Origin: a candidate division TA06 bacterium B3_TA06 | GTDB lineage: Bacteria > Hydrothermota > Tepidihabitantia > B3-TA06 | Reading direction: 5' to 3' | DNA: 64,000 nt | Assembly: GCA_005223075.1 (NCBI GenBank) | Contig: NJBO01000002.1 | Location: forward strand, 113,221 to 177,220 | Shown: piece after piece, positions 21,420-47,000 of the stretch | How the letters are laid out: each line of letters opens with the position of its first letter | How positions within the stretch are numbered: position 1 is the first letter of the stretch | The notes under the pieces: model-generated | What the model saw: the letters and a program-made list of their open reading frames with translations, nothing else | Told to the model about the DNA's origin: nothing | Databases searched by the model: none | Program-made: the position numbers and the translations under genes

Positions 21420-21492
21420 GGGGGCGTAGCTCAGCCGGGAGAGCACCTGCTTTGCAAGCAGGAAGTCGGCGGTTCGAGTCCGCTCGCCTCCA
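21420..21492 (+). tRNA. tRNA-Ala (anticodon UGC), no encoded CCA
   Basis: GGGGGCG acceptor stem pairing with CGCCTCC, including the G3:U70 pair. D-arm TAGCTCAGCCGGGAGAGC, anticodon loop CTTTGCAAG and T-arm GGTTCGAGTCC. Confidence 0.95.
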
Positions 21493-24450: not shown

Positions 24451-25839
24451 ATGACTGAATTGGTGATGGATGACCCTTTTGGCTTCCACAAAAGCCTTGA
24501 GGAGGGTGTGTTCAAGCTGGAGGAGGTGGGAAAGTTGTATGGGGAAGATGAAACTAGTTATTTAGATGGTAAGGAATTCCAATTTGAACTTGTGGTTCGA
24601 CTGAAAGGAAACATTGGGGGGCGAATAGTTTTATCTCCCGTTGATCCATCCTCCAATATAGATGACATAGAGAACGAGATTAACCAAATCAGAAGCACAA
24701 AGCAGGATGGTATATCTGCGTTTACATGGAAATTGGTTGGAGAATTAAAAGGCGAACCGATAGTAGTGAAAACCATATATATATCCTCTGAGGAGAAGAG
24801 TTATCTGCCGTCTCCTAATTATAAGTTGATTTGTGGGTTCTTTGAGTTTGAGTGGGGAGAGGATAAAGGGAAATATGAATCTTGTTTGACTTGGGTTCCC
24901 AATGTGGAATTCGGAGGGTGTGCAGGCACTACCTATCAAGAAGGTAACATCTCTAAGAGTCGTTTGGATCACTGTCAACTATCTTATCCATCCTTGCTTG
25001 GAGGATTGGAAGTCGAGATGCGTCAGCTTCGTAACTATAAGAAGATTTTAAATCACTTGATGTTGAATGGCGGATCGGCGGTTACCTCTATTTGCAACTT
25101 TGAATCCTCATCACCAGCTTCGATAAAGGATTTCTTAGAAATTATAAAGAGATTTTTTCGCCTAGTTTCTTTTGCTTCCGGGAAGTCTATTCTTCCTTTG
25201 GCCTATCATTTTAAGGGTGAGACTGAGATTCTTATCTTAAAACCTCTCAACAGAGTCAGCTACACCAAAACACTAACATGGTGCGATTACGATGATACCC
25301 CCCATTTTTTAGCAGAAGCGCTACAGGAACTTCTGCCTCATTACTTTTCGCTTGATGTGAAGCTACGAGATTTACTTGAGCTTGCATTTTACTTCTACAT
25401 AAACCTGAAGACGATAAGTCACTTCAGTACGGATATTATTCTTCTGGCAACGATCTATGAAAGTTACACATGTTCGGATTTTTTTCTACCTAGTAGCTTA
25501 AGAGAGGGTAAGAATTTACAGGAAAAAATCAAAGAACTATTACTTCGTGAGGATATGTCTTGCGAAAATGATCTTCTGAAGGTTTTCATTGTTTTGAGAA
25601 ATGCAATCATACATAGCCCTCATAAGCTAGTTAATCTTATAAATTCAGATGCTAAGCGTTCAATTCGATACATGCTTCGACAAGCTGAAATACTGACCTT
25701 GAAATGTCTGAATTACACTGGTCAATTCCGTGATACATGGCTAGTGGTTAAAGACCCATCTAAAACGTATCCTGTCTTTAGATTTGGCACAATCCTGAAG
25801 CGGCTGAAGAAAGAGAAAGAAGCTGCGGAATCAAATTAG
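24451..25839 (+). CDS. 462-aa protein with C-terminal RNxxxH (HEPN-type, ApeA/Abi-like) motif; candidate anti-phage RNase
   Basis: Long AT-rich ORF. VFIVLRNAIIHSPHKL lies near residue ~390 inside a predicted helical C-terminal domain. The N-terminal ~250 aa is beta-rich with no motif I recognise. Confidence 0.5.
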   Translation: MTELVMDDPFGFHKSLEEGVFKLEEVGKLYGEDETSYLDGKEFQFELVVRLKGNIGGRIVLSPVDPSSNIDDIENEINQIRSTKQDGISAFTWKLVGELKGEPIVVKTIYISSEEKSYLPSPNYKLICGFFEFEWGEDKGKYESCLTWVPNVEFGGCAGTTYQEGNISKSRLDHCQLSYPSLLGGLEVEMRQLRNYKKILNHLMLNGGSAVTSICNFESSSPASIKDFLEIIKRFFRLVSFASGKSILPLAYHFKGETEILILKPLNRVSYTKTLTWCDYDDTPHFLAEALQELLPHYFSLDVKLRDLLELAFYFYINLKTISHFSTDIILLATIYESYTCSDFFLPSSLREGKNLQEKIKELLLREDMSCENDLLKVFIVLRNAIIHSPHKLVNLINSDAKRSIRYMLRQAEILTLKCLNYTGQFRDTWLVVKDPSKTYPVFRFGTILKRLKKEKEAAESN

Positions 25840-43740: not shown

Positions 43741-44118
43741 ATGAAAAAGATAGCCCTCGTGGCCACGATTGTGCCCTTACTTATAATATCCCTGGGATGT
43801 GCAGGACCACCGCCTCCTGAACTGATCTACCCTGAGGACGGTGGAATCCTGCTCAACCTGCCCTTCACCTGGTCAACCGTGCCTGAAGCCGAAAACTACC
43901 TCTTCGAGATCGCCACAGACCAGGTCTTCGCAAGTGTTATCCTCGATGAAGTCCTCACAGACAACACCTACCAGATTCAAAACACTGAGATTTTCCAGAC
44001 AGGCATCACGATGTACTACTGGCACGTTTACGCCGGAGACGGCGAGAACTGGGGCGAGGCCTCGGAGACCTGGATGTTTACCATAACCAGCGGAGGCAAG
44101 TCTTGGGGAAGCTTTTGA
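43741..44118 (+). CDS. Small lipoprotein with Fn3-like beta-sandwich domain (paralogue 1)
   Basis: Lipobox LIISLGC. LIYPEDGGILLNLPFTWSTVPEAENYLFEIATDQVF...YYWHVYA. Confidence 0.6.
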   Translation: MKKIALVATIVPLLIISLGCAGPPPPELIYPEDGGILLNLPFTWSTVPEAENYLFEIATDQVFASVILDEVLTDNTYQIQNTEIFQTGITMYYWHVYAGDGENWGEASETWMFTITSGGKSWGSF

Positions 44119-44492
44119 TGAAAGCCTTTGCCGCTGCATTCGTTGTGCTGATTTTCTCAACGGTTGCCTGTCTGATAAGCCCTGACGCACCAGGCCTTCT
44201 TTACCCACCCGACGGCGACACCATCTCAGGCAGCCAGGTTACGTTCTCGTGGAGCGCGGTCGAGGACGCAACATACTACAAGCTTGAGATAGCCTCGGAC
44301 GAGTACTTTACGAGCACGGCCTTGAGCGAGGACTCGGTTGACGCCACGTCCTACACGGTGGATTTGGAGTATGAGACCAGTCCGCTTAACGGTCAGAGCA
44401 CCTACTACTGGCACGTGGCGGCTTTTAAGGAGGGTTGGGGCTCCTGGTCCGGGGTGCGCAGCTTCTACAACGCCAACCAGGAACACCCGTAA
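44118..44492 (+). CDS. Small lipoprotein with Fn3-like beta-sandwich domain (paralogue 2)
   Basis: TGATG overlap. MKAFAAAFVVLIFSTVAC lipobox. LLYPPDGDTISGSQVTFSWSAVEDATYYKLEIASDEYF...YYWHVAA. Confidence 0.6.
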   Translation: MKAFAAAFVVLIFSTVACLISPDAPGLLYPPDGDTISGSQVTFSWSAVEDATYYKLEIASDEYFTSTALSEDSVDATSYTVDLEYETSPLNGQSTYYWHVAAFKEGWGSWSGVRSFYNANQEHP

Positions 44493-44665
44493 CCCGTCGC
44501 GCGTCACTATGATGCAGGACGAAGAAGGCGGCTAAGAAGAAGGGGATTAAGATTCCTATGAAGCGATCCCCCTTCAATTCCCCCTTAATAAGGGGGACAT
44601 AGGGGGATTGTCATTACGAGCGACTGACGACCGCAGGGAGGAAGGACGAAGCAATCTCAGAGGGG

Positions 44666-44694
44666 TTGACATAACCTTAGTTTAAGAGTATATT
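44666..44694 (+). promoter_or_regulatory. Promoter TTGACA-17-TATATT for the HEPN cassette
   Basis: TTGACATAACC at 44666 and TATATT at 44689-44694. AGGAGG is at 44705, 5 nt before ATG 44716. Confidence 0.55.
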
Positions 44695-44715
44695 TGGGGG
44701 AAATAGGAGGTTAGC

Positions 44716-45420
44716 ATGGCTTTAACGAAACAGCAGAAACTTCAAGTCTTTCGTATCATTGAGGAAGCGGAAGAAGGTGTAAATCTCAATAGAATTATAG
44801 ATGGAACATTGAAAGACGTGATCCGAGGTAGTGGCTCTTCACCTGAATTTGGGTACGATAAAGTGGAAGCATCTAAAGAAGAAATCCGGTCATACTGGCA
44901 AGAACTTCAAACTAAAGGGTATATTATTCCCATAAATAATTACACTAAGGACTGGTTCAAGCTTTCACCAAAAGGCAAAAATTATTGCGAAAGACTAAAG
45001 GCTTCACAAACGGAACCACTTGATGTTGATCTGGACTCCGTGATTTTCCATGAGCAGCTTCGGGAAGAAATAAGGACTCTCTTTGAAGATGGCGAATATG
45101 CAGAGTGTGTGGTTAAGGGTGCAAGATTGCTAGAACGCCTGCTCCGAAACAAAACGGGGTCACCTACTGATGTAAAAGGGGTTGGGTTAGCTTCATTAGC
45201 TTTCAAGCCTGAGGAAGGTGAGCTAATTGCACCATATTGCCAAGAAAAAAGTCACGAAGAAGGCTTTCACTGTTTATACTTAGGTGCTATTAAGTTTATT
45301 CGGAATCTAGCCATCCATCATTCAGAAACATTAAACGATCAGATTGATAATCTGCAAATGCTTATCTTCCTTGATCTTCTTTTTCGACTATTGGAGAAGT
45401 CAAAACCCAGGAAACCATGA
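44716..45420 (+). CDS. wHTH-like N-terminal domain + TIGR02391/Hypoth_Ymh-like HEPN domain (RNxxxH)
   Basis: AT-rich ORF. The C-terminal half EDGEYAECVVKGARLLERLLRNKTG...GVGLASLAF...EEGFHCLYLGAIKFIRNLAIHH follows the TIGR02391 pattern as I recall it (...G...L..G....[IL]RN..AH). Confidence 0.6.
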   Translation: MALTKQQKLQVFRIIEEAEEGVNLNRIIDGTLKDVIRGSGSSPEFGYDKVEASKEEIRSYWQELQTKGYIIPINNYTKDWFKLSPKGKNYCERLKASQTEPLDVDLDSVIFHEQLREEIRTLFEDGEYAECVVKGARLLERLLRNKTGSPTDVKGVGLASLAFKPEEGELIAPYCQEKSHEEGFHCLYLGAIKFIRNLAIHHSETLNDQIDNLQMLIFLDLLFRLLEKSKPRKP

Positions 45421-45917
45421 TGATGGTTGAACTGCTTGTGAGCACGATAGCAGGCGCTATTGTTGGTGGAATACTTGTGTTTGTTTCGACGTGGTTATTT
45501 GACATAATCAAAATAAGGCCGCGATTCGGCGTTCAAGTTCCTGCAGCCTCTAAGTATCATTCTACCGGAAGACGCAAAGGAGAAGACGTTATCGCATGGA
45601 AAATACAATTGACTTTATTGAAGGGACAGTTCCCAATTATCCATGGGGTTCAACTATTAAATAAACAGAAAACCCCATGTTTGCTTTATAGTGACAATAC
45701 GACAGAACACATGCCTACTGGGGATACTTACATTCGATCGTATAAAATAAGACCAGTTGAATCTAAAGAAACGATTAATCCTGCTGTTTCCTTCAGGGCT
45801 AATTGTGCAATGGAGGAAAAACCATATTACTTAAAACTCTATTTTAATTTGAACAAACGTAAGATTATTAAAATCCCCCCAATCGAAATTGAGAAGTACC
45901 TAGAAGATTGGCAATAA
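45417..45917 (+). CDS. N-terminally membrane-anchored protein of unknown function, translationally coupled to the HEPN gene
   Basis: ATGA overlap. The TM helix is LLVSTIAGAIVGGILVFVSTWLF, followed by a ~135-aa beta-rich soluble part. AT-rich. Confidence 0.6.
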   Translation: MMMVELLVSTIAGAIVGGILVFVSTWLFDIIKIRPRFGVQVPAASKYHSTGRRKGEDVIAWKIQLTLLKGQFPIIHGVQLLNKQKTPCLLYSDNTTEHMPTGDTYIRSYKIRPVESKETINPAVSFRANCAMEEKPYYLKLYFNLNKRKIIKIPPIEIEKYLEDWQ

Positions 45918-46027
45918 TCTAATCCCTTGACATCCCCACCCTCCTTCAGTCCTCTCAACCAAAAACAAAGGAGGCACGCATCAATAATCACCACCCCATA
46001 CCGTTCATACCCGTTGGCGCGGGGCAC

Positions 46028-46102
46028 TCGCCTGGCGTGTATTTCTTCAGGATTGAGGGTGACGCGTCAGCTACCACTCAAAAGGTGATCCTGATCCATT
46101 AA
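46028..46102 (+). pseudogene. Decapitated T9SS C-terminal-domain remnant (last ~24 codons)
   Basis: ...SPGVYFFRIEGDASATTQKVILIH*, with stop at 46100-46102. The frame is open back to 45923 but lacks any recognisable upstream domain or start. Confidence 0.5.
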
Positions 46103-46165
46103 CTCCCCCTCCCTGGTGGCGAAGTGCCCCCGTCGGGTAAGGGGGATAAGGGGGGAGGGGATTCA

Positions 46166-46296
46166 CCCCAAAAACCCTCAAAAATACCCCAAAATCGCCC
46201 CATTTTTGTCCAACTTTTGTCCAACTTTTGACCAGCTTTTGACCATCTTTTGACCAGCTTTTTTGCGACGAGTTGCACTCAAACCTGACGAGTTGG
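46166..46296. repeat. Phased A-tracts + five tandem 11-bp iterons (G[AT]CCAnCTTTT) + 2x GACGAGT; copy 2 of 2
   Basis: Iterons lie at 46208, 46219, 46230, 46241 and 46252. Tail is GCGACGAGTTGCACTCAAACCTGACGAGTTGG. Same orientation as 555-663. Confidence 0.85.
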
Positions 46297-46409
46297 AACA
46301 ATAGAATGGGGCGAGCAGATGTCGCGAGCAGGGGGTGTTTAATTGTTCTTCCACCCGTAACACACCTCCCTATCACGCTGAAGGAGTGTATGTTACGGTG
46401 TGTTACGGG

Positions 46410-46437
46410 TTGACAGGTCGGTTTTAGCACTTATTAT
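46410..46437 (+). promoter_or_regulatory. Promoter TTGACA-16-TATTAT, 5 nt from ATG 46443 (leaderless)
   Basis: TTGACA at 46410-46415 and TATTAT at 46432-46437. Tandem TGTTACGG motifs abut the -35. Confidence 0.55.
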
Positions 46438-46442
46438 CCGCA

Positions 46443-47000
46443 ATGGAGGATCGGCTCCGCATCAACGCAGAGGACATAGCTTTAGTAGAGCGTGTCCTTG
46501 CCGACAACCGCTCGGCGCAGCGCGAGCTGGTGCGCCGCTATCAGGGACCGATCTTTGCATACATCTACCGCTGGCTGCGCAACCGCGCAGACGCCGAAGA
46601 CCTGACCCAGGACGTATTCCTCAAGATGTTTCGAGCGCTTGGCACCTACTCCCGCAAATCAAGCTTCCGCGCATGGCTCTACCGCATCGCCCGCAACCGG
46701 GTCATAGATTTCATTAGGCGCAAGAAACCGGCAGCAATCGATATAGATAAGGTGGTGATAGCCGGTGAGGACTCACCGGTCAAGACCTATAGCCGTGCCG
46801 CGACAACAGAAACCCTTGAGGACACGATCGCTGAACTGCCGCCGATCTACAGTGAGGTTCTGCTTCTAAGGCACAAAGATGAGTTGACTTACGAAGAGAT
46901 AGTAGATGCAACCGGCCTGGCCCTGGGAACGGTAAAGGCGAGGTTGCATCGTGGCAGGGCCTTGCTGCGAAAAAAACTTGACGAGGTGAAACCTTTATGA
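46443..47000 (+). CDS. ECF sigma-70 family factor
   Basis: Region 2 is ADAEDLTQDVFLKMFRALGTYSRKSSFRAWLYRIARN. Region 4 is DELTYEEIVDATGLALGTVKARLHRGR. Confidence 0.9.
   Translation: MEDRLRINAEDIALVERVLADNRSAQRELVRRYQGPIFAYIYRWLRNRADAEDLTQDVFLKMFRALGTYSRKSSFRAWLYRIARNRVIDFIRRKKPAAIDIDKVVIAGEDSPVKTYSRAATTETLEDTIAELPPIYSEVLLLRHKDELTYEEIVDATGLALGTVKARLHRGRALLRKKLDEVKPL

Follow-up and report, generated by a model that had tools for sequence, protein, structure and literature searches.

The 64-kb window analyzed here (the whole stretch of 64,000 nucleotides from the candidate division TA06 bacterium B3_TA06) holds an AT-rich cassette of two genes, the first of which (gene 1) encodes a protein of the Ymh/TIGR02391 HEPN family and the second (gene 2) a small membrane-anchored protein. 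Comparison with further loci that carry gene 1 (L001 to L012) shows that gene 2 is facultative, not obligatory: the foreign unit occurs as gene 1 alone, as gene 1 plus gene 2, or as gene 1 plus a different membrane protein. The reading that we favor, with moderate confidence, is an autonomous, horizontally moving HEPN ribonuclease (RNase) module of the conflict or abortive-infection type with a facultative membrane accessory. What we describe belongs to a known HEPN family, as a rare sub-family in which recombination is clearly modular and the orphan membrane partner facultative, and this is not enough for a new two-gene system. Coordinates of the features are collected in Table 1.

To judge from its composition, the cassette is a foreign, horizontally acquired unit with a promoter of its own. 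The AT-rich unit covers window positions 44651-46011 (~1.36 kb; G+C 0.38-0.40 against 0.53 in the flanks, and 0.34-0.36 for the G+C at third codon positions, GC3), which are also the start and the end of the blastn match between the window and L001. In 400-nt windows the G+C is 0.37-0.43 over 44600-45999 versus 0.50-0.57 on either side, bearing out the original prediction, made from the letters of this stretch, that 44716-45917 is AT-rich within a higher-GC context. Both gene 1 (GC 0.401, GC3 0.340) and gene 2 (GC 0.381, GC3 0.359) stand apart from the flanking genes (GC3 0.56-0.73), and the same contrast between cassette and flanks is found in every other locus.

The predicted sigma-70-like promoter and the strong Shine-Dalgarno sequence that had been read 5′ of gene 1 are also upheld: both promoter hexamers and the AGGAGG are invariant in four loci (the window, L001, L002 and L004), and the promoter and ribosome-binding site of the cassette recur in different genomic contexts. 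An upstream element is kept 5′ of the promoter in L001, L002 and L004, though the left flank of L001 differs from that of the window. At the other end, a non-coding tail is conserved in L001 despite its different genomic context. This tail contains a -35-like TTGACAT (45927-45933), an AAGGAGG (45968-45974) and an end motif, CCCCATACCGTTCATACC (45994-46011), which is present in a single copy in the window, also lies 3′ of the cassette in L001, and is found in 2 copies in L002. No open reading frame (ORF) follows the tail motifs in the window or in L001; positions 45918-45992 could be what remains of the start of a third gene since lost, or a tail with a regulatory role. The gene in third place in L001 shows a hint of DUF6036 (E=0.11); with a GC3 of 0.82, the host value, it was ruled out as a cassette member.

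By its profile matches, gene 1 is a genuine member of the Ymh/TIGR02391 HEPN family, and its Rx4H motif is intact, as had been proposed from the layout of its C-terminal half. At residues 111-226 the protein matches PF09509 (Hypoth_Ymh) over profile positions 3-119 of 119, with E=6.1e-17 and a score of 62 bits (cut-off 25); its match to TIGR02391 has E=1.4e-13 and 51.1 bits (cut-off 39.45). Within the motif, R196, N197, H201 and H202 are invariant in 7/7 members of the gene-1 family. Anantharaman et al. (2013; PMC3710099) assigned Ymh to the HEPN superfamily and list an Rx4-6H motif as conserved in it; Ymh genes are mostly solo or fused to pMORC, AbiJ-NTD1 or AbiTii and often lie in restriction-modification (R-M) operons (PMC3710099). 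An AlphaFold (AF2) model of the gene-1 protein, built from a 7-sequence alignment (mean predicted local distance difference test score, pLDDT, of 78), places C-terminal helices at residues 113-124, 128-147, 156-163, 178-200 and 209-228 (pLDDT 64-85). The ratio of nonsynonymous to synonymous divergence (dN/dS, or omega) of gene 1 is 0.09-0.19 in all comparisons. The sub-family is tiny (7 clusters), the only named genome with a member is a Candidatus Stahlbacteria metagenome-assembled genome, and searches for further gene-1 loci in GTDB genomes, JGI metagenomes and IMG/VR returned only loci already known.

The N-terminal ~100 residues had been taken for a winged-helix domain, a claim for which every signal we found is sub-threshold. 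AF2 predicts an alpha/beta domain with pLDDT values of 77-91 per 10-residue block and the topology helix-helix-beta hairpin-helix-beta-beta-helix. A profile search gave HTH_69 (E=0.056), a sequence search of the PDB returned only the eS10 winged helix (E=0.2), Foldseek returned PadR, MarR and AspA folds at E=0.3-2, a phage MarR protein matched the gene-1 model at E=0.9, and a PHROG transcriptional regulator matched gene 1 at E=0.047. These signals agree in direction and weakly suggest a winged-helix-like fold. The domain matches none of pMORC, AbiJ-NTD1 and AbiTii. Plasmid TIGR02391 proteins of Rhizobium, Streptomyces and Halopenitus align with gene 1 from residue 31-55 onward, and the N-terminal region is not unique to the sub-family, since these distant proteins share it. 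Their genes are solo and adjoin defense-like genes (DUF4238, DUF4365, DUF3320, ThiF/MPN).

Gene 2 is, on the evidence of selection and of its hydrophobic profile, a genuine membrane-anchored protein and a near-orphan. Its description in the original prediction (an ATGA overlap with gene 1, one N-terminal transmembrane (TM) helix, a beta-rich domain, no recognizable family) stands, with a nuance as to the start. Three in-frame ATGs could start it (45417, 45420 and 45423), of which only 45423 is conserved in the L001 homologue; L001 has TGA-cg-ATG, with a 2-nt gap, in place of the ATGA overlap, and the candidate ribosome-binding site AGGAA within the end of gene 1 is conserved there at equal spacing. 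A single hydrophobic segment (residues 1-33) contains the predicted TM helix (about residues 6-28; 45432-45500), and the beta-rich domain that comes after it has ~135 residues. The charge before the helix is -1 (one charged residue), and residues 29-57 have seven K/R versus three D/E, a net +4; applied to these charges, the positive-inside rule suggests a cytoplasmic location for the beta-rich domain. The structural model, an N-terminal helix and then strands, is of low quality (pLDDT 50). Its matches to Ig-like and beta-sandwich folds (E~4e-3) are generic, and we did not use them as evidence.

No family for gene 2 was found in Pfam, NCBIfam, PADLOC or PHROG. Among ~15 billion proteins, searched by word index across 5.8 billion clusters and by phmmer across all of 1.84 billion representatives, there was one true homologue, besides one spurious match; no relatives were found in viral contigs. 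The sole homologue, P0002 in L001, is 84% identical, and the pair has a dN/dS of 0.10 at a synonymous divergence (dS) of 0.87, from which we conclude that gene 2 is real and under purifying selection.

The slot downstream of gene 1 differs from locus to locus. Gene 2 is present in the window and in L001, a 1.9-kb contig with flanks unlike the window’s, where a gene-1 homologue (58% identity) lies directly 5′ of P0002. In two related species in which the cassette has the neighbors that it has in the window (L002/L003 and L004-L007; 10 contigs from independent assemblies, with flanks 77-89% identical in DNA to the window’s), gene 1 is intact and is followed by a gene-2 stub of the first 11 codons and then by hairpins resembling repetitive extragenic palindromes (REP-like). 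In L008 gene 1 is solo: a hairpin follows, and then a 206-residue TM gene that we ruled out as a partner, its GC3 of 0.66 being that of the host. In L009-L011 an unrelated 188-residue multi-TM gene with a GC3 of 0.33 lies 10 nt 3′ of gene 1, and no homologues of it were detected. In L012 the contig ends directly after gene 1. Thus the co-occurrence of the two genes, which the original prediction proposed to check, holds once more outside the window (L001) and fails in L002-L011, which have gene 1 without gene 2. Gene 2, for its part, is always with gene 1 (2/2 cases) and was never seen away from it. The AT-rich gene 1 was found in at least four unrelated genomic contexts.

The REP-like hairpins (GGGCCGGTCTAAAGACCGGCCC; GTAGGGGCTGACC...GGTCAGCCC) lie exactly at the gene-2 deletion junction in L002 (10735-10960) and L004 (10740-10950), directly 3′ of gene 1 in L008 (1445-1505), and after the membrane gene in L009 (11295-11345). 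In L002 a hairpin unit is duplicated together with a fragment (HSPGVYF) resembling the tail of a type IX secretion system (T9SS) sorting domain. It may be through these hairpins that gene 2 was deleted. Within the window, neither the hairpin seed GTAGGGGCYGAC, from the REP-like hairpin 3′ of gene 1 in the relatives, nor the upstream motif GTCATTRCGAG is enriched.

Gene 1 itself is a mosaic, whose N-terminal segment has, according to its alignments, been swapped between cassettes while the HEPN half is near-frozen. Between the window and L002, dS is 1.26 (omega 0.11) over codons 1-100 and 0.069 over codons 101-234, an 18-fold contrast within one gene, with an omega of ~0.1 in both halves. The HEPN halves are 98-100% identical in DNA (397/405 nt between the window and L002, 404/405 nt between L002 and L004) in genomes whose flanks are 77-92% identical (77-86% between the window and L002/L004), and they differ by 2-3 residues between genomes with and without gene 2. 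L002 and L004 have flanks of 91-95% identity and, over codons 11-50, 13-16 differences per 30 alignment columns (64-67% identity in 100-column windows). The breakpoints lie at about codon 100 for the window versus L002/L004 and at about codon 70 for L002 versus L004. Residues 18-52 of L004 are 77% identical to L009 and 57% to L002; its HEPN half is 60% identical to L009, from a different genomic context, and 99% to L002. In the comparison of the window with L001, divergence is greater in the HEPN half of gene 1 (dS ~2) than in gene 2 (dS 0.87). Because these relationships are incongruent from segment to segment, we regard the N-terminal segment, the HEPN half and the downstream gene as modules with separate histories.

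How an autonomous HEPN module of this kind would act can be sketched by analogy with characterized HEPN proteins: the gene-1 protein would be a metal-independent endoribonuclease whose Rx4H residues form the active site in a dimer, and, as an autonomous effector, it would be silent by default and would cut cellular or invader RNA once triggered. The N-terminal domain would be its regulatory or specificity module, that is, a sensor and possibly an autorepressor of the conserved promoter, and such a role would explain the exchange of alleles there while the HEPN half stays nearly unchanged. The gene-2 protein would be a membrane-tethered accessory, translated in step with gene 1, and most likely a membrane-side partner that might touch the gene-1 protein as a co-effector or as a localizer or modulator. 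The presence of an unrelated AT-rich membrane gene in the same slot, together with the fact that gene 2 was never found apart from gene 1, suggests a functional link over pure chance, albeit from very small numbers.

Several observations weigh against this reading. On the structural side, the motif loop is poorly modeled (pLDDT <50 at residues 199-206), Foldseek searches of the gene-1 model in PDB and BFVD gave no significant HEPN or winged-helix match (with no solved HEPN structure matched at E<0.1), and the PADLOC matches that link gene 1 to validated defense HEPN proteins are weak (Aga_HEPN, E=6.7e-5; PD-Lambda-3_B, E=0.005). As to mobility, no terminal inverted or direct repeats were found at the ends of the unit shared by the window and L001, no integrase or other mobility gene at the cassette, and no relatives in phage or viral collections; moreover, the cassette is held at one chromosomal site in three related species, from which we conclude that it is not freshly mobile. 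The defense-island setting that the original prediction had thought worth checking is absent: the neighbors are housekeeping genes (SLT, extracytoplasmic function (ECF) sigma and anti-sigma factors, FG-GAP/Big_5, TPR, BrkB, AhpC-TSA). Finally, the pairing of gene 1 with gene 2 is known from two loci only, and the alternative membrane partner comes from one lineage without sequence variation.

A bolder form of the same idea, which we advance only tentatively, is a modular defense family in uncultured bacteria of the Fibrobacteres-Chlorobi-Bacteroidetes (FCB) group, Stahlbacteria-like, in which a soluble winged-helix-HEPN RNase would draw interchangeable membrane partners from the downstream slot. 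A partner would either signal events at the envelope (phage adsorption or DNA entry, for instance) to the RNase or be a second, membrane-directed effector, and the swappable N-terminal segment of the RNase would set specificity. In the window and L001 this partner would be the beta-domain protein with its single membrane pass, and in L009 the multi-TM protein.

On one alternative view, gene 1 has no part in conflict and encodes an ordinary regulatory or RNA-binding protein, gene 2 is an unrelated lineage-specific membrane gene that happens to share the transcript, and the low G+C and the mosaicism stem from an old transfer and ordinary homologous recombination. The shared site in three related species, the housekeeping surroundings without defense neighbors, and the fact that the weak winged-helix matches are to transcription factors all fit it, and some members of the HEPN superfamily are regulators, for example MtlR (PMC3710099). 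We nevertheless think it unlikely: the catalytic Rx4H motif is strictly conserved, the same AT-rich gene recurs in at least four unrelated contexts, segment incongruence with an 18-fold dS contrast inside one gene would be unusual for a housekeeping regulator, and distant relatives lie on plasmids beside defense-like genes.

The roles could also be reversed, as in a type V-like toxin-antitoxin (TA) pair: the membrane-damaging toxin would be the gene-2 protein, and in L009 the multi-TM one, with gene 1 as its controller through promoter repression by the winged-helix-like domain and/or HEPN-mediated decay of the toxin mRNA, as GhoS acts on GhoT. The order of the genes fits this, with a DNA-binding protein first and a coupled membrane protein downstream, as do the loss of the membrane gene where gene 1 stays, the lack of any gene 2 without gene 1, and the unrelated membrane proteins in the same slot. 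Such an arrangement is nonetheless improbable, for gene 1 is under purifying selection where it has no membrane gene (L008, L002 and L004; omega 0.09-0.19), and the wider TIGR02391 family is mostly solo, which argues that gene 1 has a function of its own. In addition, small lytic peptides are a poor parallel for a protein of 166 residues whose beta-rich domain is folded, and no homology to GhoS or GhoT was found, the match to Fst (E=0.17) being noise.

One option in the original prediction, a TA pair or a membrane-triggered RNase, would make gene 1 a constitutively toxic RNase that the gene-2 protein holds in check or triggers. It draws on the tight translational coupling (ATGA overlap or 2-nt gap), on the joint presence of the two genes in two loci and on the well-known HEPN toxins with protein antitoxins, such as RnlA/RnlB and HepT/MntA, and is very unlikely to be right: gene 1 persists in two species (10 contigs) in which gene 2 breaks off after codon 11 and the HEPN half remains 98-100% identical in DNA with its motif intact, gene 1 is solo in L008, its partner is replaced by a non-homologous protein in L009, and gene 2 has no MNT or RnlB-like domain. 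We accordingly disfavor gene 2 as an antitoxin that the cell needs to survive gene 1; the same role, or that of an obligatory trigger, is made unlikely by selection on gene 1 without its partner, by the unchanged HEPN half and by the typically solo habit of the family. HEPN-MNT (HepT/MntA, type VII TA) was excluded because gene 2 lacks a nucleotidyltransferase domain.

Among the closest known systems is the Ymh/TIGR02391 family at large, with which the cassette shares the C-terminal 125 residues above cut-offs, the intact Rx4H motif, the habit of a solo, foreign gene in varied contexts, and an N-terminal region common to distant plasmid members in Rhizobium and Halopenitus. It departs from that family in lying outside any R-M operon and in having a coupled membrane-protein gene in two loci.

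A system called HEPN-TM reportedly goes back to Fillol-Salom et al. (Cell, 2022) and is said to correspond to the DefenseFinder model FS_HEPN_TM. The claim of the original prediction that no named system pairs a HEPN effector with a small membrane protein has to be withdrawn, since a review names ‘HEPN-TM’ as an immune system of phage-inducible chromosomal islands (PICIs) (PMC12948488). The likeness, which is one of architecture only, lies in adjacent genes for a HEPN protein and a TM protein (in the window and L001) and in a horizontally moving element; here, however, the setting is not that of a PICI or satellite, the flanks being housekeeping genes without an integrase or satellite genes, and the membrane gene is dispensable and interchangeable. 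A PADLOC scan of the cassette proteins gave no HEPN-TM match.

The two-gene anti-phage system PD-Lambda-3 is said to stem from Vassallo et al. in 2022. It combines a PD-(D/E)XK nuclease with a HEPN protein and has been reported only in Proteobacteria (bioRxiv 10.1101/2024.10.26.620412). The weak gene-1 match to PD-Lambda-3_B covers its C-terminal part (profile positions 133-263 of 270), which is probably the same kind of HEPN domain; unlike PD-Lambda-3, the cassette has no PD-(D/E)XK nuclease gene, and the match is far below membership level. The single-protein HEPN genes of abortive infection (AbiD/F, AbiJ, AbiV and ApeA) resemble our working model in joining a variable N-terminal domain to a C-terminal HEPN RNase in one autonomous gene, but they belong to other HEPN families with other N-terminal domains, and no profile matches of the cassette proteins to them were found. 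The membrane-associated HEPN proteins DUF4145-TM, Abi2/Swt1-TM and HEPN-2TM-Zn ribbon combine HEPN and the TM segment within a single fused polypeptide (PMC3710099). They share with our reading the idea of a HEPN RNase at the inner face of the membrane, whereas the gene-1 protein lacks a TM segment and the membrane protein here has an optional gene of its own.

For the widespread HEPN family Ymh/TIGR02391 we found no tested function reported in the literature consulted, and the locus offers a natural experiment: the same HEPN gene with a membrane partner, without one, and with a different one. The sharp breakpoints that part a variable N-terminal module from a near-frozen catalytic module also yield predictions about which part senses and which part acts. 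If the gene-2 protein interacts with gene 1, the cassette would be one more case in which a separate protein couples a HEPN RNase to the membrane; if it does not, the locus is a solo HEPN island of the ordinary kind that an orphan gene has joined as a hitch-hiker, and it should not enter a catalogue as a new two-gene system.

Table 1. Features of the cassette and its immediate flanks (window positions, 5′ to 3′)
Feature	Position	Strand	Basis or remark
Left G-rich 19-nt motif TAAGGGGGACATAGGGGGA, in a hairpin-rich, REP-like stretch	44589-44607	+	motif search
Upstream element GTCATTACGAG...GAAGCAATCTC	44610-44660	+	left edge of the sequence shared between loci
Predicted sigma-70-like promoter TTGACA-17-TATATT	44666-44694	+	11/12 consensus positions
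Shine-Dalgarno sequence AGGAGG	44705-44710	+	5 nt 5′ of the gene-1 ATG; read from sequence
Gene 1	44716-45420	+	234 residues
Gene 1 codons 1-100: N-terminal alpha/beta domain, possibly winged-helix-like; variable, apparently recombining module	44716-45015	+	AF2 model, dS
Gene 1 codons 101-234 and stop: Ymh/TIGR02391 HEPN domain	45016-45420	+	Pfam and TIGR02391 matches
Rx4H motif R196-N-L-A-I-H201-H202	45301-45321	+	alignment of 7 family members
AGGAA, candidate gene-2 ribosome-binding site within the end of gene 1	45409-45413	+	9 nt 5′ of ATG 45423
Gene 2	45417-45917	+	166 residues (164 if the start is 45423); ATGA overlap with gene 1
Non-coding tail of the cassette	45918-46011	+	aligns with the stretch 3′ of gene 2 in L001
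T9SS C-terminal sorting domain remnant (...HSPGVYFFRIEGDASATTQKVILIH*)	46016-46102	+	translation of the frame from 45920
Right G-rich 19-nt motif TAAGGGGGATAAGGGGGGA	46138-46156	+	84% identical to the left copy, direct orientation

The flanks had been described as dispersed repeats on the left and a decapitated T9SS remnant with an iteron element on the right. The repeats hold up in modest form: the G-rich 19-nt motif has 2 matches in the window versus 0 expected by chance, one on each side of the cassette, and a motif resembling it is also found 5′ of the cassette in L002 and L009. For the T9SS remnant the support is weak (TIGR04183, E=0.0039, 17.1 bits against a cut-off of 23, profile positions 50-70 of 72); it is part of the flank and lies outside the function of the cassette. 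Six head-to-tail 11-nt units (CCAnCTTTTGn) at 46188-46264, presumably the iteron element in question, lie 5′ of the ECF sigma gene (46443-47000), and the array is kept in L002 and L004. A 17-nt inverted repeat between it and that gene (46350-46366 / 46397-46413; TCCACCCGTAACACACC / GGTGTGTTACGGGTTGA; 94% complementary) ends in the -35 hexamer of a strong promoter-like site of the sigma gene (46410-46437). The motif ACCCGTAACACAC also lies just 5′ of the cassette in L002 and L004.

Farther to the left, two tandem, overlapping small genes on the + strand (43741-44118 and 44103-44492; 125 and 129 residues) are paralogous and conserved in L002 and L004. Both have signal-peptide or lipoprotein-like N-termini and share a YYWHV motif and a 14-nt exact DNA repeat; neither has an NCBIfam match. 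Rfam detected no structured RNA in the cassette, its sole match in the window at the gathering threshold being a tRNA gene (21420-21492, + strand). A second AT-rich island at 24451-25839 (+ strand; G+C 0.41-0.46 versus ~0.53) consists of a single ORF of 462 residues that has no PADLOC match and shows a sub-threshold match to ApeA_NTD1 (E=0.0068) and a C-terminal Rx4H-type motif (VLRNAIIH). This ORF may be an ApeA-like HEPN gene, in which case the window would hold two foreign HEPN islands.

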